Source: an uncultured virus (IMG/VR IMGVR_UViG_3300000243_000001)
Taxonomy: Duplodnaviria > Heunggongvirae > Uroviricota > Caudoviricetes
DNA length: 64,000 bases
IMG/VR virus record: IMGVR_UViG_3300000243_000001
Strand: one strand, 5' to 3'
In this document: one piece after another, positions 26,879 to 45,649 of the stretch
Layout: each line of letters opens with the position of its first letter
Position numbering within the stretch: the stretch's first letter is position 1
Program-made: the position numbers and the translations under genes
Notes under the pieces: generated by a model
The model's input: only the letters and a program-made list of their open reading frames with translations
Told to the model about the DNA's origin: nothing
The model's database searches: none

Positions 26879-27133
26879 TCAACTTTTAGCCAACTTTATC
26901 TCATGAAGTCTATCAACAATAGCGTCAATCTCATCAGGAGCTAAATTCAGCATCTTAACTCCAATCGGTAATGACTGAAGTAACATATCGAATTGACTTT
27001 GACCGGCTATGGCTTGTTCGTCTGGGTATAGATTTACGCCGACATTGGATATTTGTACGCCATTTCCAGTGTCACTTATATTTACATCCAAACTTCCAAT
27101 AGCAAAACCATTGACGTTAAATGGTATATTCAT
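26879..27133 (-). CDS. Hypothetical protein
   Basis: 84-aa ORF coupled to the queD stop. Confidence 0.65.
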   Translation of the reverse strand: MNIPFNVNGFAIGSLDVNISDTGNGVQISNVGVNLYPDEQAIAGQSQFDMLLQSLPIGVKMLNLAPDEIDAIVDRLHEIKLAKS

Positions 27134-28840: not shown

Positions 28841-30304
28841 TTAAATAATCAAGTTGTCATCAGATACTGGCGAAAGACTTTCCATAACACTAATTGTCAC
28901 CAGACCAGTATTAACGAAAGTTAATGACCAGAGGCCATCACCAATCTGACCAATAGAAACCTTATATGAGTCACCCGGAACCTGTAGGAAAGAATAGGAT
29001 CTGAGTTTAAGGTCAGCATTGGTATCATCGATTTGATCTTTAATGTAGTCTTTAAAGCTATATACCGCTGTTTCTGGAATATATATTGCTTTAAGTTGAT
29101 TACCTTGCATTAATAGATCAATGTTTGCACTATCACTAGCCATTGTAGTGATAATCGACCTTACTTCTTTATCGATCTCAATAGTTTGACCAATAGGTAT
29201 TGCTGACGTAAGATCTGGTGGAGTAGCATCTTGTTCCAAAGCTTCAATTTGCTTAGGAAGATAGATACTCATATCACCATTAGTTACGATGTAACGCTGA
29301 TTGTTTTGATCGTCAATAAAATGAATATCTGCTTCACCTTTAATGTTCTTAAAGTATTTCAGATATTTTTTGGGATTCAAGATATGTAACGAAATAGCGT
29401 TATTTGCACTGTCAATGAGATTCGACAGATTCGCAGTAACAATAGCACTACCATTGTTGATTGATTGACAAATGTTAGAGTTATTAATAATAATAACGTT
29501 CTTCTCATTAAGTATTGAGAGGATCTTAACAAATGCATCAAACTTACCTGGGCTGATCTTACAAATGAGACTTTGACCAGGTTGCATTGGTGGTGCAAAC
29601 GCAGCAGTTGGATCAATATTCATTGCTGGTGTGGTGTTTTGAACAGTCTGAGCTACAGGTTGACCAACGGTGTTCTGTTGGATTACACCAGGTTGTTGAA
29701 CAGGTATTGCTTGTGGTTGTTGAATCTGTTGAGCCTGTTGCGGTTGGATCGGAACCTGTTGCTGTGGAACCTGTTGAACCGGTTGAACCGGTTGCTGTTG
29801 AACTTGTTGGAACGGTTGTGCCTGTGGTTGTCCAACTTGACCTGGTTGTACACCTGGGCCTGGTTGTTGGAAATTTTGAACAGGAACATTTTGTTCCAAA
29901 GGATTAGCAATCCCAGCTGGTCCTGCTACCCCTGGAAGTTGTGGTTGGGTAGGACCAGGAACAAACTGACCCTCTTGAGTTGCAATATTTGGTTGCATTT
30001 GTAGATTCGGATCAGTTGCTAATGGATTTGCGATAGGTGCAGTTGCCTGAGGTGGAGGCTGACTTAAATCAACCCCACCTTGAACAGGCTGTTGAATTAG
30101 TGGTTCATTACCCATAGCGATTGCAGTTGGATCATCTAATGGAATTGGTTGGGTTAATACGTTCACCGCTGGATCAGCCTGCGGTGAAACCAAAGAATTA
30201 TCAGATGGTGTAGTTACAATAGTCTGACCTAAGTTTGGTTGCTGTTGTTCTCCAACGATTCCAGCAAAGCTAGAACCTGGATCTTGATTTTGAGTTTCAG
30301 ACAT
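28841..30304 (-). CDS. Probable sliding clamp (gp45/PCNA-like) with long Q/P-rich N-terminal tail
   Basis: C-terminal ~245 aa has clamp-like size and opening (KISPGKFDAFVKILSILN...QSINNGSAIVTANL); a clamp loader is present in the window. Confidence 0.55.
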   Translation of the reverse strand: MSETQNQDPGSSFAGIVGEQQQPNLGQTIVTTPSDNSLVSPQADPAVNVLTQPIPLDDPTAIAMGNEPLIQQPVQGGVDLSQPPPQATAPIANPLATDPNLQMQPNIATQEGQFVPGPTQPQLPGVAGPAGIANPLEQNVPVQNFQQPGPGVQPGQVGQPQAQPFQQVQQQPVQPVQQVPQQQVPIQPQQAQQIQQPQAIPVQQPGVIQQNTVGQPVAQTVQNTTPAMNIDPTAAFAPPMQPGQSLICKISPGKFDAFVKILSILNEKNVIIINNSNICQSINNGSAIVTANLSNLIDSANNAISLHILNPKKYLKYFKNIKGEADIHFIDDQNNQRYIVTNGDMSIYLPKQIEALEQDATPPDLTSAIPIGQTIEIDKEVRSIITTMASDSANIDLLMQGNQLKAIYIPETAVYSFKDYIKDQIDDTNADLKLRSYSFLQVPGDSYKVSIGQIGDGLWSLTFVNTGLVTISVMESLSPVSDDNLII

Positions 30305-30318
30305 TATTACAATTCTCC

Positions 30319-30627
30319 TTACCACGTAATTGTTAGATTAACTTCAGTTGAGCTACTCTCAAATAAAGTTACAGATCGATCGTATTCCGTTGCGTGATCT
30401 CCAGTTTCAGTTTCAATAAAAATTACAATTTCTTTTGGAAGACGTTCATTGATCAATGTCAGAACATCATCTGCTGTGTATTCTTCATTCGAGAAAAATA
30501 CAAAATTGTGAATCCCACCGTTAACGTTGAAATTCACATCCAGTTTACACTCCGTTGCTACTGCTTCGCATAAATGCTTAACGAATTTCGATTTGAGTTC
30601 TTTAGAAATAGGTTTTACCTTTAGCAT
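30319..30627 (-). CDS. Hypothetical protein
   Basis: 102-aa ORF, AAGGA RBS. Confidence 0.65.
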   Translation of the reverse strand: MLKVKPISKELKSKFVKHLCEAVATECKLDVNFNVNGGIHNFVFFSNEEYTADDVLTLINERLPKEIVIFIETETGDHATEYDRSVTLFESSSTEVNLTITW

Positions 30628-30672
30628 ATCAGTTCCTTTATATCATTATATCTTTATAAGTTTGTCTCAAAA

Positions 30673-33600
30673 TCAAGTTACCTTCAATCCCATACCAATC
30701 ATATGAATATTGTGCATATTCTGAGTGGCAGAGTTACCAGTCTTAGCTGGAATCGAAGTGTTACCATTTTGAATAATATCAATAACAGCGAAACGTTTAC
30801 TGTTAAAATCATCGGATCTAATCGTCAATAACTCATTTAGCATATTAGGTGCATCGTATGATAATAAGTTGTAGATGTCTAGATTACCAATAGACTGTCC
30901 ACCTTGATTAGATCTACCTTTCTTAGGTTGTCCGGTTACAGAAACATAAGGACCAGTAGATCGTAAACTTTCATAATCAGAAGCTAATTGTTCCAAACGG
31001 TTGGTGTACATAATCCCAACTGGAATTTTAGTCTTAGTCCAAGTATCAGTTTCCGTTAAATATACATATTCATCTAATTCAATCTTTGCATGATCGGCAG
31101 CTTTACGAATCTGTTGCATCGGAATATTAACGAATGGTTCTATAATGAAATTAAACTTCATTTTGCCGTTCATTATAGCATTCTTAAATTTAATATCAGA
31201 CATAGAAGAAATCTTCTTAGACATCGATGTAACATATTTATTAGTAGATGTAGGATCTAGTATTTTATAAAGGTCCATTAAAAACTGTTTAATAGAACTA
31301 CTCGATACTCTGTTATCATTAAACTTAGCCTTAACTATATCCGGCATCATATGGAATAACTTACCTATATATACCTCTTTAATAAATGCTAAGTTCTTAC
31401 GACCTAAAACACTTATTGGTGATATAAAGATGTCTATATCCCCAAATGTTTCTGCTTTGCATTCATTTCCTTCATCAATTACCTTAGTTACAATACCTTT
31501 GGCACCGAATCTATTAGCTAGTTTATCACCAGTTACTAACGGCAAACTTTTCTTGATGAAGAATTTAACCTGGACACCATCGAATAACATACCGCGATGT
31601 TTATGGGTTGATACTCGAATTTGACTCATGTCTAAGTTATCAACTGCTTCAAGCTTCTCTTTTTCATTCTTGGCCAATGTAGAATATTTCTTCTGGCGAT
31701 CTTTAAGATCTTTAATTAATTTACGCCATACAGAAAGTAACATTGGATCAGCAGTCTTTTGATCGTTAACGAATATTTTGATTTGGGTTATTTCACCACC
31801 TGGAGATGTCAGTCTAATGTTGTCTCCAATTAGATCAAATATTGCATTCTCATCTTCGGATGTTTCTGCATCTAAAATAGCATACTGTTCAATATATTCA
31901 TCAAGATCGCCAGCATATGAAAATTCAACCAATACATCATTCTCTTCAGTAATTAAATCAACGTCCGATTTGATGTCATGGATCTTAGCTCCTGGTGGAA
32001 TGATTACACTTACTTCTTCAATAACTTCAGTTTGGATATCATTAGCCGTTTTATTACTGATTACATAACCATCTTCGTGAGAATATCCCAAATAGTTCAT
32101 AACGGCTACTTTTAGGTTCTTACCAGAGGCATATGCATCACCATTAAAGTTATCTGTCCAAGCAATCATCTCATCTTTCTTGAACTTGGTACCAGGCTCC
32201 ATTGTATTCATTCCCAATCGAATATGTGAAGCTCTTTTTGTTGTAGCTAAACGAGGTGTGATATCGATATAATCTTCATCACCATCATCATATTTGACAT
32301 GAATATAATTATTGTACTTAACATCAAGTACTTTACCATCTCTCTTACCCTTCTGAAGGAATCTCTTGGATGAGATTTGAGGGACAATAAACTCAGCTCC
32401 AGTTGCAACTAATGGTACATCTCCGTTTTTGATTGGTGATGCTTGAGCACGATGTGTATATGCCAAGATAGCACGAGTTGCGTCCATTTCATTAATAAAC
32501 GGTACTAATGATTCATCCAGAGAAACAAAATCCCAACCATTGGCTTTAGATATATCTTTGGTCCCATATGACCCATACTGGTTGGAAATAAGTGGATTCA
32601 ATGTCATATGGTTAGTGATACCAACGGGTGCATACTCACTAGTTGCATTGGCTCCAATATTACCATAGTACGAAGGATGGATATTACGATGCTCTTTCTT
32701 AATACTTCGAGTATTCGGTATCCCTCCAGGACCAGTTTTAATCAATTTGGTGGCCAGTTTAAGTTCATCTACTGGAGTATATGCTTGGATTGGTTCAACT
32801 ACAGCACCACCTCGTTTATTTGGATCTACACCCAATAAACAATCAATCACATAGTTTGGTTTCAAGAATATTTTAGATGAATCGTCGTTCTGATTCATAT
32901 TGTTCTTATATGTAGAGTGCGCCATCATAAGTTCACTATACAGTAAATTAAACATGATTTCAGCTTGACGACTTCGATATATCTTAAGATCAGTTAAACT
33001 ATCTGGTTGATCATTAAGTAATTTATCGACCATTTCATCAGCAATCAATCCAATCATAGTTGTTGGTTTATCTTGAAATTCCAAGAGATCTTTTGTAATT
33101 GGATCGATAATATTCTCTGCCGCATTATTAATCAATGCAACAGCTCGAGTACCTTCTTTGGTAGTTATGAAATCTACTATAGCTTCGGTATCATTAAGAT
33201 CTGTTTTTGCAAACTTAAACTTACGTTTATCGATCAATAATAATCCATTTGCAAGAAGTTCTTGTTTACGATTTGCAATCTCAATAACTAAAGTTTCATC
33301 ATCCCTTAAATCGAAATATAATGCATCTTTGAATGATACTGATGATTTCTCATCTTTAGTAATAATTGTATAGTTAAGATCTAATTTAACAAGAGCATTC
33401 AATAAACCAACCTGTTGCCACATATATATGATTATTGGAAGCTTAACACCGGATAGATGCATCTGGATATATGGAATAGATTTAGTGCTCTTGTTGAGAG
33501 TTTCTGCTGGATTGATTGCTTGAATTGCCAACAGTAACTTGTTATAGATGAATTCAGATATCCCGTTACCTAAAGGAACATCTGCAACATTTGAGTCTGA

Positions 33601-35361
33601 ATATTGTGCAATATAATGACCTTCTTTAATGTTAACTTGGCACGATTCATCTATATAAAATGGAGCTTCCAATAGATTGATCTTCATACCATTAGAGAAT
33701 TCAGCAGTTTTAATACGATTCTTATCTTGCTCCATACTAACAATCAATTCACCATATTTGATTGAAATATACTCGATAATCTTTTCCAGTTCAGATATGT
33801 TAAACTTCAGATTGTTAACCGTCAATGTCATCGTCGTATATGAAGTTAATAAACGACATTCATTCGGATGTGTCTTCGTTACAGGTGCAAAGGTCTGTTG
33901 ATTCGCTAGAATGTACTGCTTACCATTGAGCTTAAAGTAACGATCATTGACAAGAGCAGGTACTTTAACATTAACCACATAAGGTTTGTCATATCCACCC
34001 GCCAAGTTCTCAAGAGTTATTTCGTAATTAATAACTCGATTGAGATTATCGTCCTGATACTTGTGTTTGAAGCTAACGATCTTAATTGGTCGGTCTTTAC
34101 GATTCTCGAGTACTTTGAATAGAGTTTTAATGGTCTTATGAATGTTGTCAGAAAATTCATATTCCTGTCGAACTAAACCTGTAACCTTATCTAAACTAAC
34201 GATATCTGCTGGATCACACATGTAATCTTCTTTAAGATTCTTAATGTTGATCGCTTTGGAGTAAGTATTGACTTCTTCCAATTTAGATATCAATTTAGCT
34301 GGATTTGACTTATAATCTTCAGATACATCAGATGTACCGAATATGGTAAGATGTATTGCTTTGAAGATCTGTTCTTCAAGATCACTTTCATCAAACGTTT
34401 CATTCGATTTGATGTAGTTATCCAAAGCATTCTTAATATTGTCACCAATCGTTTTATCTTTAATCTTATACTTACGAAGGATCTTAGATAATTGGTTACG
34501 GTTAATTCGTATGACTGGTTGTACTGAACCTTTGTTAGATACATCAACAGTTTTGTCTAACTTGACTGAAGATATATCTTTTGTTAGTTTAGTTTGAGCT
34601 TCATCATCGTCTGATATGGATTTAACCGTTTTGATATTGGTGAGATCCTTAACAGCCACACTAAACTCTTTCTGTAACTTACGAATAAACTGGATGTTGG
34701 CATCATATGCAACGAGCTTACCCTTTGGATTATATCCCATAAGTGGTAAGACTAACGATTTATCGGCAAGTTTAACAGATGCCAATGTAAACCGATCAAA
34801 TGCTCTATAATTAACATTCAAATCATCTTTAGATACTGAAATCAACCTGGCCAAAACATCAATCAATGATATCTCTTCACTGGTTTTATTCAATCCAAAT
34901 ACGATAACATTCTCGTGAGTTGGAAATATACCTTTAATGTATTTGAATTCTTTAGATAACTGTTGATATAGAAAGGATAGACCACGCTTAACACTAGTTA
35001 GCTCCGAAATATACTGGGTGGCTTGACTTGTTAGTGTGTGATCCATGATTATAAATCGATTCTGTGGGATCGTTTTCGGTAACATGCGTTTAATCTTGAG
35101 GCTTGAACTATGTTCTTTATTGTTCTCGGCAACTTTGTCTTTCGATGCCAGGAATAATTTGCGACCATTGAACGATCTACTACCTAGTTTAAGTAGTTTA
35201 CCTTTAGTGATTAAAGCAAAGCAGTTATGTAATTCAATTCCAGAAGTATTGATTAATTCAGCAGTTGTAGATCCGAAGTCAGGAACGAAATGAACTATAG
35301 TTGGTTTGGTAAAAGTTAAACTTGTAACTTTTGAACTATAATTTAGTTGTTTTGAATTCAT
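30673..35361 (-). CDS. rpoB: DNA-directed RNA polymerase beta subunit with ~400-aa N-terminal extension
   Basis: YFKLNG, RNIHPSYYG, DATRA, GKNLKVAVM..GYSHED, GDKLANRFGAKG, TGPYVSVTGQP.KGR..QGGQSIG. Confidence 0.93.
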   Translation of the reverse strand: MNSKQLNYSSKVTSLTFTKPTIVHFVPDFGSTTAELINTSGIELHNCFALITKGKLLKLGSRSFNGRKLFLASKDKVAENNKEHSSSLKIKRMLPKTIPQNRFIIMDHTLTSQATQYISELTSVKRGLSFLYQQLSKEFKYIKGIFPTHENVIVFGLNKTSEEISLIDVLARLISVSKDDLNVNYRAFDRFTLASVKLADKSLVLPLMGYNPKGKLVAYDANIQFIRKLQKEFSVAVKDLTNIKTVKSISDDDEAQTKLTKDISSVKLDKTVDVSNKGSVQPVIRINRNQLSKILRKYKIKDKTIGDNIKNALDNYIKSNETFDESDLEEQIFKAIHLTIFGTSDVSEDYKSNPAKLISKLEEVNTYSKAINIKNLKEDYMCDPADIVSLDKVTGLVRQEYEFSDNIHKTIKTLFKVLENRKDRPIKIVSFKHKYQDDNLNRVINYEITLENLAGGYDKPYVVNVKVPALVNDRYFKLNGKQYILANQQTFAPVTKTHPNECRLLTSYTTMTLTVNNLKFNISELEKIIEYISIKYGELIVSMEQDKNRIKTAEFSNGMKINLLEAPFYIDESCQVNIKEGHYIAQYSDSNVADVPLGNGISEFIYNKLLLAIQAINPAETLNKSTKSIPYIQMHLSGVKLPIIIYMWQQVGLLNALVKLDLNYTIITKDEKSSVSFKDALYFDLRDDETLVIEIANRKQELLANGLLLIDKRKFKFAKTDLNDTEAIVDFITTKEGTRAVALINNAAENIIDPITKDLLEFQDKPTTMIGLIADEMVDKLLNDQPDSLTDLKIYRSRQAEIMFNLLYSELMMAHSTYKNNMNQNDDSSKIFLKPNYVIDCLLGVDPNKRGGAVVEPIQAYTPVDELKLATKLIKTGPGGIPNTRSIKKEHRNIHPSYYGNIGANATSEYAPVGITNHMTLNPLISNQYGSYGTKDISKANGWDFVSLDESLVPFINEMDATRAILAYTHRAQASPIKNGDVPLVATGAEFIVPQISSKRFLQKGKRDGKVLDVKYNNYIHVKYDDGDEDYIDITPRLATTKRASHIRLGMNTMEPGTKFKKDEMIAWTDNFNGDAYASGKNLKVAVMNYLGYSHEDGYVISNKTANDIQTEVIEEVSVIIPPGAKIHDIKSDVDLITEENDVLVEFSYAGDLDEYIEQYAILDAETSEDENAIFDLIGDNIRLTSPGGEITQIKIFVNDQKTADPMLLSVWRKLIKDLKDRQKKYSTLAKNEKEKLEAVDNLDMSQIRVSTHKHRGMLFDGVQVKFFIKKSLPLVTGDKLANRFGAKGIVTKVIDEGNECKAETFGDIDIFISPISVLGRKNLAFIKEVYIGKLFHMMPDIVKAKFNDNRVSSSSIKQFLMDLYKILDPTSTNKYVTSMSKKISSMSDIKFKNAIMNGKMKFNFIIEPFVNIPMQQIRKAADHAKIELDEYVYLTETDTWTKTKIPVGIMYTNRLEQLASDYESLRSTGPYVSVTGQPKKGRSNQGGQSIGNLDIYNLLSYDAPNMLNELLTIRSDDFNSKRFAVIDIIQNGNTSIPAKTGNSATQNMHNIHMIGMGLKVT

Positions 35362-35369
35362 TATATTCC

Positions 35370-36056
35370 TCAATCATCGTTGAAACCCAATACATCTCCA
35401 ATAATATCACCAAGGATTTTATTTTGTTCTTTTTTAGTCAATGGTTTATCAATGAGTTCTTCGGGTGTCGACTCGTTATTTTCGTTAACTGTATTTTTTT
35501 CAGTAGTTGATTGACTGTCATTATTTTTAATGACGTCAGGAAACCAGTCTGGCATCACAGCCAAAAAGTCTTTTTTCAGTATTTCATTGAATTTATAAAC
35601 GTAAAAGAACTCATTAACTCCATCATGATGCACATTTAAGGCAACTAAATAATGATGCCTCAGAACAATATTTGTCATCAATATTGGTATTTGATGGTGG
35701 TATTGTGCAATGAAGAAGGGTATGCGTTGCTCATCACTACGTTCATCCAATAATTTCTTTAACCATTTACGGAGATGGTTTTGATTCATTAATGTTGGTA
35801 TATTTTGAGCATAACCATTCTTACACTCAATTACAAAAGGAAATATGTGCCAAGGATATTTTGAGACATGTTTGGGTGTAATATCACCCATGTACACAAC
35901 CTTACGTGCACCTGAATCTTCATGTTTGTATAATATGGTATTATCATTAAACATCCACTTACTCAATCGCTTAGCTGTCTCTCTTTCGTATTTGTTTCCT
36001 TTCGATTTTTGATTAGTTGGTCGTTTCTTTTTTACAGGCTCAATTGGTGTCGTCAT
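35370..36056 (-). CDS. Holliday junction resolvase-like PD-(D/E)xK nuclease
   Basis: KGNKYERE, SGA, GDI and IECK motifs (Hjc-type layout). Confidence 0.75.
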   Translation of the reverse strand: MTTPIEPVKKKRPTNQKSKGNKYERETAKRLSKWMFNDNTILYKHEDSGARKVVYMGDITPKHVSKYPWHIFPFVIECKNGYAQNIPTLMNQNHLRKWLKKLLDERSDEQRIPFFIAQYHHQIPILMTNIVLRHHYLVALNVHHDGVNEFFYVYKFNEILKKDFLAVMPDWFPDVIKNNDSQSTTEKNTVNENNESTPEELIDKPLTKKEQNKILGDIIGDVLGFNDD

Positions 36057-36064
36057 ACAGTAAC

Positions 36065-36277
36065 CTATTTAATAAACTTACTTTTGGGTTTACGTTTACG
36101 ATTACAATAACCACAATCTTTAACTTTTCCAGAATTCAGTTTCCGAGTAGACAATTTGATATTCTTACCACACCGACATATACAGTGCCAATATGTGGTA
36201 CTAGTTTCAGATGTAGCTTCCCCAGTTACAGATAACTTACCGATTGTCTCTCCAGTAAAGTCTATTTTCTTAGCCAT
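36065..36277 (-). CDS. Stand-alone Cys-rich domain of the type found N-terminal in HNH/AP2 homing endonucleases
   Basis: DFTGETIGKLSV...WHCICRCG...LNSG..KDCG; no nuclease domain follows. Confidence 0.65.
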   Translation of the reverse strand: MAKKIDFTGETIGKLSVTGEATSETSTTYWHCICRCGKNIKLSTRKLNSGKVKDCGYCNRKRKPKSKFIK

Positions 36278-36446
36278 TTCTATTCCTCAAGATAGGTGAG
36301 TCCATCGACATCTCGTTCTGATTGAGGTATTTTCGCATCCTCATCATCTTTTTTCTTCTTTTTCTTTTTCTTCTCTGGTGGAGTATCATGACCACCTTTC
36401 AATACAACTCTTGTTATATCAATTACTACTTTTTCTTCAGACATGA

Positions 36447-37109
36447 CTATAACCTCTTGAAATCTTCTTGGATTACATTTTCAATTGGATTTTGTTCAGC
36501 TTCTTTACCTTGAACTAACCCTTGAGTAATCGCTTTGTCGATATATTGGAAGGCTAGTGCTGACATCCAGCTATCTTGGAATGGTTGATTCTTTTGTCCA
36601 ATAATAACTGCATTGTTATATGACCCTTTAATTCGACATCGTTCAGCAAGATTATTCTCACGACGAAACATATTCGATATAATAAGTTCGATATGGACTA
36701 AATCAACAGTTGGTATAATATCATATATCATGTTGATTAAAGTCTTTGGGTCATTAACATATTTGACATTACCGTGCAGTAATCGAGTCAATAAGCCAAT
36801 GTCCGTTTGGACATCAACATACTCTTTATCGATAACTGTATCACCTTTGTCATATTTGATTGTTGTTATTTTACGGTTCTTCTCAGACTTTTGGGTTTTA
36901 TGTAAGTTGACTGAGAATGTTACTGCGAATTGAACGGTCGTATCTTTCGATGGTACATAAAAGTCAAGTATACCAGGTAATGATATCGTGTCAGATTGTT
37001 CGATAAATGAACGCTCATCATAATCTCGTTCATTAATTATAATCTCACATGGTATTTTACATACGATCTTACTTTTCTGTATATCGAATACATCATCGAG
37101 TTGTAACAT
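36447..37109 (-). CDS. rpoC: RNA polymerase beta' subunit, C-terminal fragment
   Basis: VHIELIISNMFR and SWMSALAFQ....ITQGLVQGK...IENVI match beta' KHIEVIVRQMLR and SFISAASFQ...KENVI. Confidence 0.8.
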   Translation of the reverse strand: MLQLDDVFDIQKSKIVCKIPCEIIINERDYDERSFIEQSDTISLPGILDFYVPSKDTTVQFAVTFSVNLHKTQKSEKNRKITTIKYDKGDTVIDKEYVDVQTDIGLLTRLLHGNVKYVNDPKTLINMIYDIIPTVDLVHIELIISNMFRRENNLAERCRIKGSYNNAVIIGQKNQPFQDSWMSALAFQYIDKAITQGLVQGKEAEQNPIENVIQEDFKRL

Positions 37110-37122
37110 AAATCACCTATGA

Positions 37123-37158
37123 TTTGGGTGATCGGACGTAATGGTTCGATCACCCAAA
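37123..37158. terminator. Intergenic hairpin (terminator or RNA-stability element)
   Basis: TTTGGGTGATCG/CGATCACCCAAA perfect 12-bp stem; weak U-tract. Confidence 0.55.
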
Positions 37159-37161
37159 CGT

Positions 37162-37938
37162 TTAGATTAAACCTTCATCTTTAAGTTCTTTGATTTCGGC
37201 TACAGTATATCCGGATTCTTTAAGAGTTACTAATTGACCTAAAGACAGTGTACGGTGTATTGGTTCTGCAATTAATTCAGTTGTTACCGCTGGATATGCA
37301 ACATGTTTCATTTGCTCGTCAATGATTGATTTAACCAGACCAGGGAGTCCGTTATGAACTATCTCAAGTTCACCGGTGACAATAGATTTAACTGCATCTA
37401 CACCAATTGGAGTTGGTGCCATTGATGCACCATCGATATTTGCTTTTTTGAAATCTTGATTCAAAACATGAAGTGACTTTTCAATCGACTCAATCTTTTC
37501 CAGAAGTGAAGCTAAATCACGATTCATTTCATCGGCATCGAAGTTTTCTGAAACTTTGGTACCTTCCGAGACAAGTTGATTGATATTCTGTTCAATTTGT
37601 TGTCTGAAGTCTTGAAGATCTTTAAGTTCAACACATTGAGCAATCTTATCACTCATATTATCAACAACACGATTAACGTTGTTGAATGAATTTCCCATCA
37701 GTTCTTCTATCTTCTTGGTGAGAAATGTAACTGTCTCTTTATCTTTAGCTATATCAAAAGGTACAGGTTCGATTTCAAACGTTTCAAGTCGTTGATCGAT
37801 CAGTGTATCAAATAGTTCTTTAGGTACAGCAGTATGCGAATTTCCAGCCAAGTGAATATATTGACCATTATGTTCATATATCTGGTTCTGAAATTGCTCA
37901 GGATATACGTATGCTTCTGCTTCTTCATCACGAATCAT
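37162..37938 (-). CDS. Coiled-coil hypothetical protein
   Basis: Start moved to MIRDEE directly after the upstream stop; heptad-rich centre. Confidence 0.65.
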   Translation of the reverse strand: MIRDEEAEAYVYPEQFQNQIYEHNGQYIHLAGNSHTAVPKELFDTLIDQRLETFEIEPVPFDIAKDKETVTFLTKKIEELMGNSFNNVNRVVDNMSDKIAQCVELKDLQDFRQQIEQNINQLVSEGTKVSENFDADEMNRDLASLLEKIESIEKSLHVLNQDFKKANIDGASMAPTPIGVDAVKSIVTGELEIVHNGLPGLVKSIIDEQMKHVAYPAVTTELIAEPIHRTLSLGQLVTLKESGYTVAEIKELKDEGLI

Positions 37939-37939
37939 T

Positions 37940-38203
37940 TCAGGAAGGGCTACTAATTTTCGGATCGGTTTCGATTCCATGCGTTTCACCAAGTGTGGAT
38001 TTTTGAATGTCAGTTTTGTCCGCAATTTCACTGCTAATATAGTCGATCGGTTCAACTTGGCACAATAAATCTTCTAATCCATGTTGTACTTTCCATTGAT
38101 TGAAGTAGTTAACACCAAATATTTGATCATCAGTTATGAATAACGGTTTCGTTTCTAGTTGCTTGTTGATCGTTTTCACTAAAAATAGTTTAGGTTTAAT
38201 CAT
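37940..38203 (-). CDS. Hypothetical protein
   Basis: 87-aa ORF with ATGA overlap to the beta' middle gene. Confidence 0.6.
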   Translation of the reverse strand: MIKPKLFLVKTINKQLETKPLFITDDQIFGVNYFNQWKVQHGLEDLLCQVEPIDYISSEIADKTDIQKSTLGETHGIETDPKISSPS

Positions 38204-39294
38204 AATACATCTTTAGTAAAGTCAACTTCCTTAATGTTAACGGTTACAGATTCATGTCTTGCTTTCATACTGTAACCTTCAATACCGGCTGTATTGATTG
38301 CACTACCAGCAAGTAACCCAAGATGTTTTGTATCTAATTTCTTAGACAATCCACCATAACATATTGAACATATTCCATCTTTTGCTTTACAATATGTTGG
38401 ACTTCGTAATTGAATAACCTTATTTGCAATTTTAGAATCATCGGTTATTTGAATCAATTTGCCAGATCGCGAATTGATCATCCATCTCCCAGTCAAGTGC
38501 TTTTCCATGCCAGGTTTAATAAAGATTTCCAAGTACTTATTCGTTCCACAATCGTCTTTTTCCGCTAACTTTGTATTTGAGTTTGCGAATACGACAGTCT
38601 TTGCCAAGTATCCTGGACCAGCTGTACCAACAGCACGAATGAATAATGTTCGTCGTGCATCAGCAGCAGTAGTATAATATTCTTTACCACTGTACCCTTC
38701 AGATAAAGCAGACGTTACTGGATCCGATATATTACCTTCGATATCGATAGTTGGACCTTTGGACAGTTGTAATACACCTAAATCTGTTGGACTAATCTTT
38801 GCTCCAGATTTAATGATGTTTGATATACCACTGTTCGCATCGATATCTTGTTCGACATATTCATTAGATAGCTTGGTTAATTCACCAGCATACTTTTCTA
38901 GTGGAGTATCTTTATTCAATCGTTGATTTCGTTGTTCAATGATCTTATCCGATACAACAATATTATTTGAATCTACCGATTGTGGAATAATTGAAGATAA
39001 TTTGAATGTTTCTTTATTTAGTTCTGTCATTGTTCGTGCAGCTGTTTCTGCATCACACACTTCAATGATATCACCAATGATAGCTGACATTCGTTTCTTA
39101 TCTACTGCTTCATTTACCAACACTTTATACTTATCTGGCATCAATAGATTAAACCAGATTCGCCCGAGCGATAATGATACAGATTTATTTTTAGTTTTTA
39201 TTCTGTGTGTGAACGAATACTTATCAGATATTTGAACTGTATTTTTTTTCAGTTCTTCATACACTTCTTCAAGTGTTGAAATGTCATTACTCAT
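38200..39294 (-). CDS. rpoC: RNA polymerase beta' subunit, middle fragment (bridge helix, Zn site, trigger loop)
   Basis: SEGYS..EYY...ARR....TAGPGYL, DDCGT, RSPTYC...GICSICYG, GLLAGSAI...MKARH. Confidence 0.9.
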   Translation of the reverse strand: MSNDISTLEEVYEELKKNTVQISDKYSFTHRIKTKNKSVSLSLGRIWFNLLMPDKYKVLVNEAVDKKRMSAIIGDIIEVCDAETAARTMTELNKETFKLSSIIPQSVDSNNIVVSDKIIEQRNQRLNKDTPLEKYAGELTKLSNEYVEQDIDANSGISNIIKSGAKISPTDLGVLQLSKGPTIDIEGNISDPVTSALSEGYSGKEYYTTAADARRTLFIRAVGTAGPGYLAKTVVFANSNTKLAEKDDCGTNKYLEIFIKPGMEKHLTGRWMINSRSGKLIQITDDSKIANKVIQLRSPTYCKAKDGICSICYGGLSKKLDTKHLGLLAGSAINTAGIEGYSMKARHESVTVNIKEVDFTKDVL

Positions 39295-39306
39295 ATCGTA
39301 TCCTTA

Positions 39307-39334
39307 AAGGGGAACACTAACCAGTATTCCCCTT
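39307..39334. terminator. Intergenic hairpin
   Basis: AAGGGGAA/TTCCCCTT inverted repeat between nrdJ and the beta' middle gene. Confidence 0.5.
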
Positions 39335-39360
39335 CTTATGTTTATAAATTTGTGAATGTC

Positions 39361-41706
39361 TTATCCACAGGCTGAGTAACCACAATCTGGATCGATACAT
39401 GATCCACCACGACAACCAGCAGATCTTTGTAGAGTACGATTACGACACACTGGGCAGATTTCCAATGATGTTTCAACTTTAACTGGTTTGTTGTCAGTTA
39501 AACAATATCCATCAACCGGCTTACCTACGAAGTGATAGCGAACCATTTTAGCAATAGCATCCAATACGGATTCTGCACTAATGCGGATTCCTTTAGTACC
39601 ATTACCACCTTCACGATCTTCATCTAACAAGAACCAGAATGGGTGTCCACCTTCACCTTCCATTTGAGCCAATATTGTATCAATTGGAACACGATGATGT
39701 AGTGACTTACTGATTTGCTTCGATAGATTCTTAATCAATAATGATTCGAGCTGTCCAGATTTACCCATGGATAAGAATAATTCAACAATCTCACCTTTCC
39801 ATTTATTACATGTGATGTAAACGGATCCATGTGGACTTCTGAATTTAACAGTATCCCCTGGACGTTTGTTCGGAAGCTTAATCGGTTTAGACTTAATTGT
39901 AGGATCGGTTTCAAATTCATCTGAAACTTCAGATTGATCCTTAGTCGTTCCAAAATTAACTGGTTGAACCTCCAATGATCCATCACGATATACAGTAATA
40001 CCTTTAAGACCTAACTTCCAAGCCTTAATGTATGCTTTTTCAACATCAGCAACAACAGCGTTATTTGGAAGATTGCAGGTTGAAGATATCGCAAGACTAA
40101 TGTATTTTTGTCCAGCAGATTGCATATCAATCTTTTTACTCCAACCAACATCATGTGCCGTTATAAATACTGTCTTAATATGATCTGGAATCCCATCAAC
40201 CTTCTGAATACTACCACGGTTCTCAATAATGGACTTCATAATTTCGTCCGTTAATTCAATCCCTTCACTAGCACAACGAGAAAGAAATTCTTCATTAACA
40301 AACTTAAGAGTTTGGTTACGATCAGCTAGAGGCTTCTCCCAAACAATAGCCATCATTGGTTCAAAAGCATAACAACAATCAGCAGAGATAGAAATACTAC
40401 CAGTTGGAGCCAGAGACGTAACATGAGTATTACGGATACCCGAATCATCAAATATTGCCAGGTAGGCTTCACTAACCCCATATTCTTTAAGGAGTTTTCT
40501 CATGATAGGTTTATCGGGACCTAATGTAATAGGACCATATTCAGCTGCCATATCAATAGAATGCTCATATGCGGTTACTGTTAAGAATTGACATATCGTT
40601 TCGAATAGTTGAAATGATTCATCACAACCATACGGTATGTTCATCTTATACAGTATATCTGCAAAGCCCATGATTCCAAGTCCTAACGGACGAGTGTCAG
40701 TCATGGTTGTTTTAAAACGTTGATTTGGAAATGATGTTGTGTCAATTACTTGATCCAAGAATTCAACAGCTCGTTGAATAGCTGGCTTAAACAGATCGTA
40801 ACTGAATTTGTACATATTTCCATTCTCTTGGCCTTCTTTCTTAACCAAGAACTTATTAAGATTCAGCGATCCAAGATCACAACATGAATCATCAGTTAAC
40901 GGCACTTCACCACATGGGTTAGTTGCTTTAACTTTACCACGACTTGGAATAGGATTCATATCATTACTTTTATCATAAAATAATAGACCTGGATCACCAG
41001 ACTTCCATGCGTTTTGTACAATCAATTCCCAGATATCTTTAACTGTAATCGTTTCAACTAAAGTATCATTATTCGGGCTAATTAGTTCAATTGATTGATC
41101 CCACCGACCTTCGTCAACATATGTCATAAATTCATCATCGACAAGAATACTGATATTAACAGCACTAAAATTAATTGTCTTTTTACATTCGATGAACCGT
41201 AAGATGTCTGGGTGTTTATACCAGAATGAAGCAAGATTAGCGGCACGTCTAGCTTTGCCACCAGACTTAACTGTATCGGAAATAGATTGAACAACCTTCA
41301 TATATTCAATCGGTCCACTAGCCTGACCACCAACTGATAAAGGAGAACCGGATTCTCGAAGGTTGGAAATACAAAAACCTGTACCTCCACCACCAGCGTA
41401 GACCGTAGCACACGTATTCCACATCTCAATAATAGATGACATCGTATCATCAAGACCTACAACGAAACAAGCTACGAGGTTATTATTGTATTTACTTTTG
41501 TGTTGTTGGGAACCCCATGCATTAATCAGGCATGGTGAATTAGGTCTAAAAATATTATCGTCCAGTAACTGTTTGAAATCGTCTTTCTGTTCGGAGTCGC
41601 GAGCAACACATTCTGCTACTCTTAGATGTACTTCCTCTACAGTATTTTCATCTTCATTCATGTATAACGATTTATATACAGCAGTTGCATTTTCACTTCG
41701 TTCCAT
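39361..41706 (-). CDS. nrdJ: Class II (adenosylcobalamin-dependent) ribonucleotide reductase with C-terminal TSCPD-like/Zn-ribbon region
   Basis: PNSP, ACFV, TNPCGE, CDLGS, APTG, KGITVYRDGS, terminal CPVC...C..CGYSAC. Confidence 0.92.
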   Translation of the reverse strand: MERSENATAVYKSLYMNEDENTVEEVHLRVAECVARDSEQKDDFKQLLDDNIFRPNSPCLINAWGSQQHKSKYNNNLVACFVVGLDDTMSSIIEMWNTCATVYAGGGGTGFCISNLRESGSPLSVGGQASGPIEYMKVVQSISDTVKSGGKARRAANLASFWYKHPDILRFIECKKTINFSAVNISILVDDEFMTYVDEGRWDQSIELISPNNDTLVETITVKDIWELIVQNAWKSGDPGLLFYDKSNDMNPIPSRGKVKATNPCGEVPLTDDSCCDLGSLNLNKFLVKKEGQENGNMYKFSYDLFKPAIQRAVEFLDQVIDTTSFPNQRFKTTMTDTRPLGLGIMGFADILYKMNIPYGCDESFQLFETICQFLTVTAYEHSIDMAAEYGPITLGPDKPIMRKLLKEYGVSEAYLAIFDDSGIRNTHVTSLAPTGSISISADCCYAFEPMMAIVWEKPLADRNQTLKFVNEEFLSRCASEGIELTDEIMKSIIENRGSIQKVDGIPDHIKTVFITAHDVGWSKKIDMQSAGQKYISLAISSTCNLPNNAVVADVEKAYIKAWKLGLKGITVYRDGSLEVQPVNFGTTKDQSEVSDEFETDPTIKSKPIKLPNKRPGDTVKFRSPHGSVYITCNKWKGEIVELFLSMGKSGQLESLLIKNLSKQISKSLHHRVPIDTILAQMEGEGGHPFWFLLDEDREGGNGTKGIRISAESVLDAIAKMVRYHFVGKPVDGYCLTDNKPVKVETSLEICPVCRNRTLQRSAGCRGGSCIDPDCGYSACG

Positions 41707-41707
41707 A

Positions 41708-43552
41708 TTAACGTTTATCCCTACCAAAGATTAATTGATATATAGTATTATCTCGATACCATTTAGATCTAGCGTAGTTAAATCTATCAAGTATTGGTGC
41801 GGTTCCTAATGACTTAGTTGAATATGGTATTGGTTCAACTTGAGTCGATGGATCACCACTCATCATTATTTGATTAATAACTAACAGATCTTTTTTGTTA
41901 CAATATACAATTGCAGCTTCACCAATCTTACGGCCAGCTCTATGAACAAGTTGAGCTAATGATGAATTAGACATTGCACGTGGATTACCGAACTCTTTGC
42001 TAAACACATCGATGCTCGGGATGTAGATTGCTCGAACTTTAAGATTTACACCAACACCAACAGATGTTGTTGCGATTATCGAGTATATCATTCCACGTTT
42101 ATATAATTCTTCAACAACTTGTATGTCATCTGGGGAATACATTCGACCACTTGGTCCACCTGGTTCATCATCACCAGACATTATGTAACCAAAACCATGT
42201 GATACAGCTTCCTTTAATTGTATATCTTTCATGTTCTCATACATCTTATATATCTGGTCCATTGTTGAACCTCTAGATGCTTTCTCGGCAACTGAACCGA
42301 TCGTATGAATTGGATCGGCATGTGGTTGTCTAGATGGAGAAACATATTGATCTGTTATATTAGCAGACTTAATTCCCATAACTGCAGCCATGTTTCGTGG
42401 GGATGTTGAACTAATTACTTGTTCAGTAAAGTCGGTAATTATCCGCTTATTGAATACCATAATTAAGTTATTAGTACTTTTACCTTTGATATGATCTACA
42501 ATCAATTTCGGAATATCTTTGCGAACTAGGTCTGTTGGTAATACGGTAATTCTGGCTTTATTGCGTTCACCAGTACTATTTAGTTTCATATCGAAACCAG
42601 TACTTGGTGTATCAAAACGGATATACTCCATCTTGTGTTTCAGATAGTTATTTAAATATGATCTGATATATAGAGCAGTAGCATGATTCATTGATCCAGT
42701 TAGTACAATTGATGATGTACCGTTAGAATTATCTGCAGCCACTATGTTGTTAAAGAAATGCCGAACCTTTGTGCTTTCACTTTCCGGATCACTAAGTTCA
42801 GGTTTAAATCTTTCTTGAACTTCATCAATAACAACGATTGCAGGATTATGCTGACTGATCATTTTGGTAGCAAATTCATAGGTACATGTCATTGCAATTG
42901 TGTCAGATGTAACACCATCTACTCCACCCATCTTCTGTCCAGTCCATCGTCCAACCATATCGTGCATTCGTTGCATTGCATTTGGTGGCAAAACGAAATT
43001 ATTAATTGGACCTGTATGTTGACCGAATCCAGGAACATCATAGAAATACGGTTCAATCATGAATTTAGGCATTGATGCTACAGTCTTATCGTCACTCATG
43101 TTATCTGATTTTAATGACGTGAACAATGATTTAAATAGAATCTCACGTAGTTGATTTAAAATCTGAGACGATAACAGTTTAGTTTCGGCAACCCATAATA
43201 TCTTTGGAATACTACCTGGTCTAGCTCGTTTCAATAAATCGAAAAACGACATCATTATTGGGTGAGTTTTACCAGCAGATGGTGCAATGTTTACGAACAA
43301 GTTTGCATTTCCAGCGATAATTTTGGTTGTTATTAAATGTTGCCAATTCTTAGGTATAAACCCAGGTTTGGTTACATTCGCCATTTGTTTTCTGATCAAT
43401 CTTTCTTGATCATCAGCTGCAACGATACCATGCTGATCTAACAAACGACTATTTGCAGCATTAGCTAAATGAGATCCTGGATTTGCTGTTTGTCCTGTAA
43501 GTGCACGATGTTGTCCACCGAACACTTCATTGATGATACTTTCATTATCCAT
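41708..43552 (-). CDS. Superfamily 2 helicase (Ski2/DEAD-DEAH-like)
   Basis: APSAGKT, DEVQE, TGS, GVGVNL, QLVHRAGR; start moved to MDNES. Confidence 0.8.
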   Translation of the reverse strand: MDNESIINEVFGGQHRALTGQTANPGSHLANAANSRLLDQHGIVAADDQERLIRKQMANVTKPGFIPKNWQHLITTKIIAGNANLFVNIAPSAGKTHPIMMSFFDLLKRARPGSIPKILWVAETKLLSSQILNQLREILFKSLFTSLKSDNMSDDKTVASMPKFMIEPYFYDVPGFGQHTGPINNFVLPPNAMQRMHDMVGRWTGQKMGGVDGVTSDTIAMTCTYEFATKMISQHNPAIVVIDEVQERFKPELSDPESESTKVRHFFNNIVAADNSNGTSSIVLTGSMNHATALYIRSYLNNYLKHKMEYIRFDTPSTGFDMKLNSTGERNKARITVLPTDLVRKDIPKLIVDHIKGKSTNNLIMVFNKRIITDFTEQVISSTSPRNMAAVMGIKSANITDQYVSPSRQPHADPIHTIGSVAEKASRGSTMDQIYKMYENMKDIQLKEAVSHGFGYIMSGDDEPGGPSGRMYSPDDIQVVEELYKRGMIYSIIATTSVGVGVNLKVRAIYIPSIDVFSKEFGNPRAMSNSSLAQLVHRAGRKIGEAAIVYCNKKDLLVINQIMMSGDPSTQVEPIPYSTKSLGTAPILDRFNYARSKWYRDNTIYQLIFGRDKR

Positions 43553-43556
43553 TCTA

Positions 43557-44843
43557 TCACTCTTTGGTTGCAGCGTAGATCGTAGATACTGAATCAAGGG
43601 TTAATGGATAATGATGGCCACTTGATACAGGATCCATCCAGGCTGATTTAGACTTCGCAGGATTCAGTTTACGAGCTTCTTTCAAAGCTTCATTTGTGAA
43701 AACTGGAAATAGTGCAATTGCATCTCCATCAAAGTCTAATCCTTGAGGAGTTACACTTAAACTATTAACTACTGCTGCTTGTCCAGATTCTAATACTACA
43801 ACAGAACCTGAGTAATATGAGTTTCGAGAAACAACTGGATCTCTTTTACAGAGAATGTCTTTATCTTTTGAAATTATGGTAGCAACTCTAAGTAGTTCAT
43901 CTTTCAATGGTCCAGTAATCTTCTCTGGATACTTATTTATTTTTTGATTGAATTCCTGGATCTTATGGTCATTAATGTCACCTGGATCACAGCTCATGAA
44001 TTCAGCAATTAATTGTTTAATCTCTTCATTTTTGAAGACATTGTGTATAAAGAACGGTTGGTATAATGTAATAACTACGTGCCACGGTACACCTATTGAT
44101 CCCAAAGGTATGTTTGGATCTGATATTGCAACAAGTCTTGCTGAGAAATCAACAGTCTTCTTCAACATTGTTCCTTGAAATAATCCTTGTTTACCTTTGA
44201 CTTTAGATTGGACCCATTTATATATTGCCAATGCTGTCTTTTGAATATATCCAATAAACATATCTGATAGTTCTTCAGATTGAGTTGTACGTTGAACAGT
44301 TAATAAAACCATCTTCTCATACAGTTCATTGATCTCTGATGAAAATTGTTTACCTTTGGTTTGAGTTAAACTCAGATCTCTAATACCGGCTGGTAATATT
44401 AATTGTTTGTCAATAAGGATCAGATGTTTATTCGTATCTAAGAACTTAGCATTATCTGCTTTAGCACTTTTGCATATGTCGGAGAACTTGATCTTATCGA
44501 ACACAGATATAAAGAACCCTAATCCGGTTTGTCCAATCTCAACTTCTTCAAATTTTCCATTTTTGAATGCGAAATGCTTATTCTCATTCAAAATGTGTCT
44601 AAGTTCAGGTGTTATTCCAGCAATTATATCATACAATACTGGATTAATGACCTGACATCCTAGATCAATATATGCAAACTTAGTTTTACGTATATCACTA
44701 CCAACATTACCAAACAGTTCTTCTGACCATAATCCTTTTGGATCAAATGTGTTTTTGTTGATCGAATAAATATTTACCGAAGTTACTTCACCGCATTTAT
44801 TTCGGGATATATAGTGATCAATATCTAGTAATTGTAGTTGCAT
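43557..44843 (-). CDS. rpoC: RNA polymerase beta' subunit, N-terminal/catalytic fragment
   Basis: GLWSEELFG, LPAGIR, KGKQGLFQ..MLKKTVDFSAR, RDP, and catalytic LDFDGD. Confidence 0.92.
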   Translation of the reverse strand: MQLQLLDIDHYISRNKCGEVTSVNIYSINKNTFDPKGLWSEELFGNVGSDIRKTKFAYIDLGCQVINPVLYDIIAGITPELRHILNENKHFAFKNGKFEEVEIGQTGLGFFISVFDKIKFSDICKSAKADNAKFLDTNKHLILIDKQLILPAGIRDLSLTQTKGKQFSSEINELYEKMVLLTVQRTTQSEELSDMFIGYIQKTALAIYKWVQSKVKGKQGLFQGTMLKKTVDFSARLVAISDPNIPLGSIGVPWHVVITLYQPFFIHNVFKNEEIKQLIAEFMSCDPGDINDHKIQEFNQKINKYPEKITGPLKDELLRVATIISKDKDILCKRDPVVSRNSYYSGSVVVLESGQAAVVNSLSVTPQGLDFDGDAIALFPVFTNEALKEARKLNPAKSKSAWMDPVSSGHHYPLTLDSVSTIYAATKE

Positions 44844-44863
44844 ATGTCTACCTAAAAAATAAC

Positions 44864-44886
44864 GTGAGGGACATTACATTCCTCAC
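44864..44886 (-). terminator. Putative terminator
   Basis: GTGAGG/CCTCAC stem followed by TTATTTTTT on the minus strand. Confidence 0.65.
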
Positions 44887-44892
44887 AGAGCA

Positions 44893-45642
44893 TTAGAAGT
44901 CTTCGTTTTCATCGTCCCATAAATACAGATGTAGGCGAGGTACAAAATGATACCCGTTATCTACACAATACTTAAGGGTTACAAGACTAGCATCTTTGAG
45001 CTGTTTTGCAAATTCATCTGGATCTTTCACTTCGAATCGATTGGGTGTTAAAGGCATAATGTACACTTTTCGATAATCGATATCCATTCCATTAATGAGA
45101 GATTCCATTACTTCTTGATACACTGGATCATTAACGAATTTAAAAATATAATTACCGTATGCCTTGATGTGCCGTAAATTCGCAAGCATGCTTGTATATG
45201 TACCTTCTGAACTAGGTAGATACCAAGTAACATCTAACTTTGGACTGATATTGAGCTTAACCTTCGATGGTAATGAATCAAGAAAAGGTTTGTCAATTAG
45301 AGATCCATTCGTTTCAATTTCAATGGTTTCAAAATGATCACAATTAAGTAACCGATGGAACATCTTGTTATTTTTATATAACAGTGGTTCACCACCAGTG
45401 ATCATTAAGTTACGGGTTTTGTTACCGAACTTTGATATCATTTGTGCAAGAAATGCATCGAACCCCGCTTTATCAACGAGACTGGCATTTTTTGTACCCC
45501 ATGACCATGGAGTATCGCACCACGGACATCGACAATTACATCCAGCAAGACGTAAAAGAATGGAAGGAACTCCAATCAAATCACCTTCACCCTGTATAGT
45601 TTCAATTTCTTGATGAATATATAACGTTGAATTATGATTCAT
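44893..45642 (-). CDS. queE: 7-carboxy-7-deazaguanine synthase (radical SAM)
   Basis: TIQGEG, RLAGCNCRCPWCDT, ITGGEP, IETNG, SPK, PRLH. Confidence 0.92.
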   Translation of the reverse strand: MNHNSTLYIHQEIETIQGEGDLIGVPSILLRLAGCNCRCPWCDTPWSWGTKNASLVDKAGFDAFLAQMISKFGNKTRNLMITGGEPLLYKNNKMFHRLLNCDHFETIEIETNGSLIDKPFLDSLPSKVKLNISPKLDVTWYLPSSEGTYTSMLANLRHIKAYGNYIFKFVNDPVYQEVMESLINGMDIDYRKVYIMPLTPNRFEVKDPDEFAKQLKDASLVTLKYCVDNGYHFVPRLHLYLWDDENEDF

Positions 45643-45649
45643 TTTAATC

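Follow-up and report, generated by a model that had tools for sequence, protein, structure and literature searches.

A probable virion-type RNA polymerase core with a one-piece beta and a three-part beta' in an uncultured tailed phage

The 64,000-nucleotide stretch of DNA analysed here, referred to throughout as the window, comes from an uncultured virus of the class Caudoviricetes (IMG/VR record IMGVR_UViG_3300000243_000001) and carries four genes for a multisubunit RNA polymerase (RNAP). They belong to an unbroken series of open reading frames (ORFs) on the minus strand and lie within 14 kb of each other, in N-to-C order along the direction of transcription. The beta' subunit is divided among three of them: beta'N (43557..44843, 428 aa), with the DFDGD motif and an Rpb1_2 domain; beta'M (38200..39294, 364 aa), with the bridge helix, the zinc-cluster region and the first trigger-loop helix; and beta'C (36447..37109, 220 aa), with the signatures HIELIISNMFR and SALAFQ. 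The fourth gene, on the same strand, encodes an unsplit beta of 1566 aa, which starts from a TTG and occupies 30673..35373. The original prediction, made from the sequence alone, had located all four ORFs and had seen that the beta' pieces, while in N-to-C order, are interrupted by a helicase-like ORF, NrdJ and unknown ORFs; its coordinates for beta need extending at one end, as 35361 is only the first in-frame ATG. An 87-aa ORF is also among the genes that separate the beta' pieces. Scans of the window's ORFs (62 with PHROGs, 35 with Pfam) label beta, beta'N and beta'M as RNA polymerase subunits in PHROGs, leave the 220-aa ORF without a label and reveal no alpha, omega or sigma family in the window, in keeping with what had been noted for alpha and sigma.

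Against the Rpb1 and Rpb2 domain models of Pfam, by which the original prediction proposed to check its assignments, beta and beta'N score above the cut-offs, beta'M scores below and the 220-aa ORF has no match. For beta'N the match is to Rpb1_2, at E = 1.3e-17 and 65 bits (cut-off 25.3). The protein holds the double-psi barrel with the Mg-binding DFDGD, and its C-terminal end lies about 45 residues past that motif. It reaches 178 bits on phrog_2986 (E = 4.1e-52) and 34.6 bits on phrog_2987, and it aligns with residues 1-397 of the unsplit relative P0105. Its nearest proteins outside its own clade are unsplit beta' proteins of about 1000 aa (30% identity, E = 3e-41), SPN3US gp240 following at E = 1e-17. 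The second piece, beta'M, obtains 18.9 bits with Rpb1_5, below the cut-off of 28.5, and 84.3 bits with phrog_2962 (E = 1.4e-23), where the alignment reaches profile position 430 of 433. Its best chain in the PDB is 7s00_D (5.5e-17, covering residues 188-378 of 631), from an entry which Foldseek gives the title of AR9 non-virion RNAP core, and 77 PDB beta' sequences match it at E <= 0.1. The stretch ...GYSMKARHE... of beta'M pairs with ...GTQMIMKSFHTGG... in unsplit relatives. At its terminus beta'M reads ...AGIEGYSMKARHESVTVNIKEVDFTKDVL, where unsplit relatives have ...GERGTQMIMKSFHTGGA..., and this comparison implies that beta'M stops about 15 residues past the first trigger-loop helix and its histidine. 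About 250 residues of the usual beta' C-half are absent from it.

The 220-aa ORF is the true C-terminus of beta'; the original prediction had called it so from its motifs, and natural fusions now bear the call out. An exhaustive hidden Markov model (HMM) search with the alignment of its 18-member family (A1) returned 205 proteins at E <= 0.001, and among the 150 matches listed the C module occurs in three forms: alone, as a protein of about 216-257 aa, or at the end of proteins of either about 571-597 aa or about 1000-1018 aa. The fused protein P0038 (586 aa) corresponds to beta'M over residues 23-355 (35% identity, E = 8e-77) and to beta'C over residues 364-584 (36% identity, E = 2e-49). P0026 is fused likewise, with 44% identity to beta'M and 40% to beta'C. 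The unsplit proteins P0078, P0105 and P0138, of about 1010 aa, carry Rpb1 domains 2, 3 and 5 (domain 1 too in P0078 and P0105) and the window's N, M and C align along them one after another; in P0105 the aligned stretches are 1-397, 458-779 and 791-1005.

Structural models point to the same place. For an AlphaFold2 (AF2) model of the 220-aa family, with a predicted local distance difference test score (pLDDT) of 70.5, the 12 best Foldseek matches are all RNAP beta' chains, the first being 7s00_F at E = 6e-3. The AF2 model of the fused P0026 (pLDDT 81.3) matches the beta'C subunit of the AR9 non-virion RNAP, 7s01_D, at E = 5e-22 over 617 columns, that of phiKZ, 8que_D, at 4e-20 and cellular beta' at about 1e-19. 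In the VIA alignment, which served to position the match and not as proof, residues 2-197 of the 220-aa model fall on positions 407-552 of AR9 beta'C, and E. coli beta' pairs over 948-1024 with residues ~13-99; segment 943-1130 of the E. coli protein is the SI3 insertion. The AR9 paper assigns the trigger-loop insertion domain to gp154 residues 400-508. Together with the VIA placement, this puts the start of beta'C, the N-terminal domain of which is beta-rich, at the trigger-loop insertion domain, after which come the second trigger-loop helix and then the regions at the C-terminus.

The fourth protein, beta, matches Rpb2_6 at E = 7.9e-23 and 81.6 bits (cut-off 23.4); with Rpb2_7 it obtains 16.7 bits, below the cut-off of 32.1. 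Residues 1050-1317 of the 1342-residue E. coli beta align with its residues 1269-1543 at E = 3e-34. A single ORF with no stop within holds both phrog_3148 (residues 626-1325, 211.6 bits) and phrog_3233 (1361-1562), and so unites the regions that SPN3US makes as gp241 and gp218; the PA7 gp178 homologue aligns up to residue 1329 and then stops. Of the N-terminal lobe and protrusion domains the sole hint is a sub-threshold match to Rpb2_3 at 882-926. The beta gene of two metagenomic relatives, L011 and L015, is seemingly broken after about 905 codons, and in each case a full-length group I intron accounts for this gap (L011 14514-14818, 115.7 bits; L015 8996-9498, 85.8 bits). Since the intron fills the gap, beta is one polypeptide throughout the clade. 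The intron site, ...YYGNIG|ANAT..., is a conserved motif at which the window's beta is intronless and uninterrupted.

The literature offers a close counterpart for the beta' set. According to PMC7598289, the virion RNAP core consists of at least five polypeptides, since the small virion protein gp244 of SPN3US gives the C-terminal-most region of beta'; jumbo-phage RNAPs are also described there as lacking alpha, omega and sigma. Table 5 of PMC5105663 gives the beta' pieces of SPN3US as gp240 (beta'N, 519 aa), gp42 (beta'M, 431 aa) and gp244 (beta'C, 240 aa), and those of beta as gp241 (betaN, 1401 aa) and gp218 (betaC, 222 aa), whereas PMC7824862 counts the virion pieces otherwise, as two of beta' and three of beta. 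In control searches gp240 falls in phrog_2986, as does the PA7 gp180 homologue, gp241 in phrog_3148 and gp244 in phrog_2926. SPN3US reading frames of 432 and 238 aa hold phrog_2962 (gp42) and phrog_3233 (gp218) respectively, and a 702-aa frame of the long, non-virion type holds phrog_3015.

Thus, the beta' of the window has the architecture of a virion RNAP, and its two cuts fall at matching positions, to the extent that the ends of the profiles can tell. As in the virion RNAPs of SPN3US and phiKZ, it is made as three proteins (428, 364 and 220 aa, against 519, 431 and 240 aa in SPN3US) that belong to the same PHROG families, with beta'M ending at profile position 430 of 433, with a homologous small C piece, and with a second, paralogous RNAP in a relative of the window (contig C1, below). 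The small C piece was linked by comparing A1 with an alignment of ten gp176/gp244 proteins (the SPN3US gp244/phiKZ gp176 family) from diverse jumbo phages, loci L001-L010: hhalign aligned the two end to end, over 204 columns, at E = 7e-5 and a probability of 63%, while the 220-aa family against a single gp176 gave a probability of 5%. As the gp176/gp244 family is the published third piece of beta', a three-part beta' is not new. The sequence identity is about 21-27%, and the genes are clustered in the window and scattered in SPN3US and phiKZ. The main difference lies in beta, a single protein of 1566 aa in the window as opposed to an N piece of about 1400 aa and a C piece of about 220 aa. This is the only departure from the described phiKZ/AR9 pattern. 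The unusual architecture claimed in the original prediction therefore stands for the unsplit beta and falls for the three-part beta', which has been published for jumbo-phage virion RNAPs. Excerpts of PMC7598289, PMC5105663, PMC7824862, PMC13282480, PMC9209446 and PMC7481178, supplements aside, contain no description of a virion-type RNAP with an unsplit beta.

The non-virion RNAPs of AR9 (7S00/7S01) and phiKZ (8QUE) are the best structural matches of the window pieces. They share the two-barrel core, the lack of alpha and omega and a beta' that is split after the DFDGD barrel, and the trigger-loop insertion domain of AR9 (gp154 400-508) aligns with the start of beta'C. They differ in that the C-half of their beta' is one protein of 631-654 aa, that their beta is in two pieces and that they have a fifth, promoter-specificity subunit. 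The window pieces also score lower on phrog_3015, 2987 and 3295, families favoured by set A of contig C1 (below), than on the virion families. Another group to consider is that of the mReC phages, metagenomic Caudovirales whose beta and beta' were found with models from cellular homologues (Weinheimer and Aylward 2020, PMC7481178); the word "split" is never used in that paper, and low-scoring, fragmented beta' proteins of RefSeq phages were kept out of its main set. These are, like the source of the window, uncultured tailed phages with a multisubunit RNAP, and the unsplit beta' proteins of about 1000 aa that are most similar to beta'N outside its clade look mReC-type; unlike theirs, the beta' of the window is in three genes and not one protein. 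In cellular enzymes, separately encoded parts of beta' likewise assemble, as in cyanobacterial and plastid RpoC1/RpoC2 and archaeal A'/A'', and the N|M split of jumbo phages is at the cyanobacterial split position (PMC7598289). Those are, however, two-part splits in enzymes that have alpha and omega. We know of no RpoC1/RpoC2 or A'/A'' split described at the boundary of the trigger-loop insertion.

The order beta'N, helicase-like ORF, NrdJ, beta'M, ORF X, beta'C, PDDEXK-like nuclease, beta is kept in metagenomic relatives, three of which (L011, L012 and L014) show 75-82% identity and one (L015) 44%. IMG/VR yielded no relative when scanned with either beta'N or the alignment of beta'C as the query. 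A further locus, L018, is part of a 263,784-bp contig, C1, in the metagenome-assembled genome (MAG) G001. When the MAG assembly was searched with Rpb1_2 and Rpb2_6, cellular rpoB and rpoC turned up on a different contig, and C1 yielded two phage sets; C1 is probably a phage genome co-binned with a bacterium. Set B of C1 mirrors the window, with proteins of 437, 371, 206, 220 and 1543 aa; the 1543-aa ORF is the orthologue of beta, and the orthologue of beta'C, which is 50% identical to it, matches phrog_2926 at 2.2e-8. Set A is compact and consists of an unsplit beta' of 1030 aa followed by ORFs of 392 and 648 aa, apparently a split beta (L026 14222-17314 and 17347-18525; L024 1114-3060). Its pattern is thus the opposite of that of the window set, with beta' whole and beta apparently in two ORFs. 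Set A favours phrog_25354, 3015, 2987 and 3295, is 22% identical to beta'N of the window (E = 5e-10) and includes, in its 392-aa ORF, a sequence with no Pfam or PHROG match. The last gene of the window, an NAD-dependent ligase, is orthologous to the C1 ligase (38% identity, E = 4e-127), which lies about 670 bp from set A, and this synteny would place a second RNAP just past coordinate 64000 of the window. The original prediction spoke of a complete RNAP. The full complement of beta and beta' is indeed present, but the 264-kb relative holds a second, paralogous set, and the window probably shows one of two polymerases.

Upstream regions provide a further clue. A 12-nt AT-rich motif, ATAWAGATATWA or ATA(T/A)AGATAT(A/T)A, has 19 matches with at most one mismatch in the window, against 7.7 +/- 2.8 expected, a count that none of 100 shuffles reached, and 16 of the 19 are on the coding strand. 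Seven of the eight exact copies occupy coding-strand positions between genes, upstream of genes for replication and for other functions (minus strand: 7500-7511, 10445-10456, 15876-15887, 20327-20338, 23293-23304, 30646-30657 and 55256-55267). The review PMC7598289 describes for each RNAP-encoding jumbo phage an AT-rich motif of about 10 nt near -10 of the early genes, which is taken to be the promoter of the virion RNAP, and the fit suggests that the motif of the window is a candidate early promoter. It is not found directly upstream of beta'N, beta'C or beta, where there are GC-rich hairpins instead. Such hairpins lie directly upstream of beta'C (37110-37161, with a 15-pair stem), beta'M (39295-39360) and beta'N (44844-44892, followed by a T run) and may be terminators of upstream genes or regulatory RNA structures. 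Between 30000 and 46000 neither sigma-70-type promoters (61 against 75.5 +/- 7.2) nor intrinsic terminators (6 against 6.6 +/- 2.7) are enriched.

We consider it likely that the four genes encode the catalytic core of a two-barrel RNAP of the jumbo-phage virion type that acts early in infection. In such an enzyme, beta' would consist of three proteins joined non-covalently. The barrel with the Mg-binding DFDGD would come from N; M would contribute the bridge helix as well as the catalytic histidine on the first trigger-loop helix; and C would run from the trigger-loop insertion domain through the second trigger-loop helix to the C-terminal regions. With the first trigger-loop helix in M and the second in C, the mobile trigger loop of the active site would be made from two polypeptides. 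The beta subunit would take part as a single protein of 1566 aa, and alpha, omega and sigma would have no part. By homology with the virion enzymes of SPN3US, phiKZ and AR9, the complex would probably be made late, packed in the capsid and injected with the DNA. The injected enzyme would then transcribe the early genes from a short AT-rich promoter, for which ATA(T/A)AGATAT(A/T)A is the candidate, and a second, paralogous RNAP would handle the later genes.

Several points weigh against this proposal. We infer packaging from homology alone, and the RNAP genes sit among genes of replication and nucleotide metabolism; gp176 and gp244 adjoin the head protease in SPN3US and PA7, and beta'C does not. 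The second RNAP set has not been seen for this phage itself, of which the window covers 64 kb. For beta'M the preference for the virion family is narrow (84.3 bits on phrog_2962, 73.7 on phrog_3015). The 220-aa protein has no match in Pfam, PHROGs or PDB sequences (phmmer 0), and the VIA Z-scores of 3.5-4.1 for its model alone are within noise according to the tool. Its narrow family HMM misses the ten gp176/gp244 sequences as well as the set-A beta' of C1, so that only the comparison of profile with profile connects it to gp176/gp244, at a probability of only 63%. In beta, the first ~410-620 residues, where the lobes would lie, resemble nothing beyond close relatives, and in being unsplit the protein fails one defining trait of the described virion RNAPs, namely a large N piece and a small C piece of about 220 aa.

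A rival reading is that the four proteins form a real core that is not packaged, serving either as the sole polymerase or as a non-virion enzyme made after infection, like the unsplit RNAPs of mReC phages. The position of the genes in a block for replication and nucleotide metabolism would suit such an enzyme, as would the closer similarity of beta'N to the unsplit beta' proteins of about 1000 aa than to gp240 of SPN3US (E = 3e-41 and 1e-17). We regard it as rather unlikely, given that two sets occur in the 264-kb relative, whose gene order is the same, and that the window stops precisely at the ligase gene past which that relative has its second set. In addition, all pieces have their top scores on virion-RNAP families, and several jumbo phages carry a homologue of beta'C in their virions.

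It is very improbable that the 220-aa ORF is an unrelated protein with two short motifs by chance, which would leave a beta' without its C-terminal regions. Neither the single sequence nor the 18-member profile finds a match in Pfam, PHROGs, phages or the PDB that would speak for beta': tblastn with the protein hit two of 50,697 phage records, both at a non-credible E = 8, and the profile found no Pfam family and, as its best PDB match, a putative adhesin at E = 0.22. Against this stand the beta' proteins of ~571-597 aa and ~1000-1018 aa that end in the module, its pairwise E-values of 2e-49 and 2.4e-56 to fused forms, the 12 of 12 top Foldseek matches that are beta' chains and the fused model that fits beta'C subunits over their full length. 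Rejoining of the pieces, be it by RNA splicing of introns that contain the intervening genes or by protein splicing through split inteins, is hardly credible either, even in a lineage rich in group I introns (in beta) and inteins (in beta' and NrdJ). No RNA family is found in 30000-45500 even at E <= 1 and none in the whole window at the gathering score, the genes in between (NrdJ, the helicase-like ORF and ORF X) code for conserved proteins, and the ends of the pieces abut within about 5 residues on a fused homologue, which leaves no room for intein halves. Decay of a former beta' gene or an error of assembly, as its fragmentation with other genes in between might suggest, can practically be dismissed as the source of the pieces, since independent contigs at 44-82% identity share both the boundaries and the gene order, every piece is a complete ORF that begins at an ATG, an unsplit homologue is covered nearly gap-free and the catalytic motifs are intact.

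A maximum-likelihood tree of the C module was made from 131 of the 170 matching sequences, after 13 near-identical family members and 26 rows with fewer than 180 profile positions had been dropped; it is a quick tree with a midpoint root and with support only from the Shimodaira-Hasegawa-like approximate likelihood ratio test (SH-aLRT). The starred clade, that of the window, has 23 rows (22 stand-alone and one fused), the adjoining clade has 22, of which 13 are fused M+C proteins, and the full-length forms, 14 in number, all fall in the opposite half. The 97 rows labelled as stand-alone, fused M+C or full-length require a minimum of 18 state changes; 34 rows of unclear completeness are not counted, and an intron, intein, frameshift or contig end may have truncated some of the ORFs scored as stand-alone. 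The beta' genes of the relatives P0086, P0159, P0140 and P0142 contain LAGLIDADG inteins. In P0159 and P0140 they interrupt the trigger loop at MK|(S/T)FH; in P0086 the intein follows this MK as well, but the protein continues with TGGAV; and in P0142 the intein directly follows DFDGD. NrdJ, too, has inteins in L011 (4205-7621, 1138 aa) and C1 (L028 1508-4825, 1105 aa), compared with 788 aa in the window, the genes of which are without inteins. We rejected the idea that the split points coincide exactly with the sites of inteins in relatives, as the inteins lie about 20 residues before the M|C cut and about 45 before the N|M cut.

These observations may show a clade in which fragmentation is under way: beta' is made as one, two or three proteins in different relatives while beta remains in one piece, and the M|C cut, which falls at the edge of the trigger-loop insertion domain, would have been gained or lost repeatedly in genes that also harbour inteins and group I introns at catalytic motifs. 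This is a possibility that we put forward tentatively, as somewhat less likely to be true than false. Two opposing origins of the split phage RNAPs have been proposed, one as relics of a multi-piece enzyme that predates the last universal common ancestor (LUCA; PMC7824862) and one by intron-driven fission (PMC7598289).

The genes between and around the four RNAP genes deserve a short description. The helicase-like ORF (41708..43597, minus strand, 629 aa) lies between beta'N and NrdJ and has a weak match to Pfam DEAD (0.0013, under the cut-off); ORFs of 597, 616 and 468 aa take its place in L011, L014 and C1, judged by position only, and it is possibly the RNAP-linked superfamily 2 (SF2) helicase of group 1 jumbo phages, a lead from PMC7824862. 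NrdJ (minus strand, 788 aa) follows between it and beta'M and matches Ribonuc_red_lgC at 2e-112. ORF X (37162..38055, minus strand) separates beta'M from beta'C and has 297 aa from its TTG, its start being probably Met26 instead. Homologues with 24-42% identity occupy the same place in all five relatives with context (L011, L012, L014, L015 and C1). ORF X has no Pfam match above the cut-off and no PHROG match, its best score in Atlas is 0.80, under the bar, and its structure finds only TM-scores < 0.3. Between beta'C and beta lie an HNH-like ORF of 70 aa (36065-36277), a remnant that covers profile positions 191-256 of 617, and the PDDEXK-like nuclease gene (35370-36056) that is kept in relatives. 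A free-standing HNH endonuclease is found further upstream of the RNAP genes, at 48968-49636.

Elsewhere in the window, two neighbouring ORFs (4462-6594 and 6584-7492) together specify a family-B DNA polymerase, and a DHH phosphoesterase is encoded at 12261-13223; both fit the published core gene set of RNAP-encoding jumbo phages. QueC-, QueD- and QueE-like proteins, a further radical-SAM protein and a 510-aa protein with a domain of the uracil-DNA-glycosylase superfamily are encoded at 19264-20016, 27133-27543, 44893-45699, 1023-2024 and 8878-10410, respectively. This suggests a DNA modification of the 7-deazaguanine type, and the RNAP would then face such DNA as its template. In a 210-aa protein (49639-50271), the C-terminal part matches Pfam Tad6, a type I Thoeris inhibitor, at E = 6.2e-12 and 46.2 bits (cut-off 27), and its gene is a candidate anti-defence gene.

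To our knowledge, jumbo-phage RNAPs are the only multisubunit RNAPs known to work without alpha and omega, and our literature searches found no structure of a virion RNAP. A virion-type set of four proteins encoded within 14 kb, with a whole beta, would be easier to produce and to determine structurally than the phiKZ enzyme with its five pieces. A trigger loop built from two polypeptides would be a natural experiment on how the trigger loop works. The series of one-, two- and three-piece beta' proteins bears on the dispute between relic and fission, and the natural fusions prove how the pieces fit together. If fragmentation is indeed under way in this clade, the window set would link the unsplit RNAPs of metagenomic phages to the virion RNAPs of the phiKZ type, and the many-piece RNAPs of phiKZ-like phages would be the outcome of recurrent fission driven by mobile elements rather than pre-LUCA relics.

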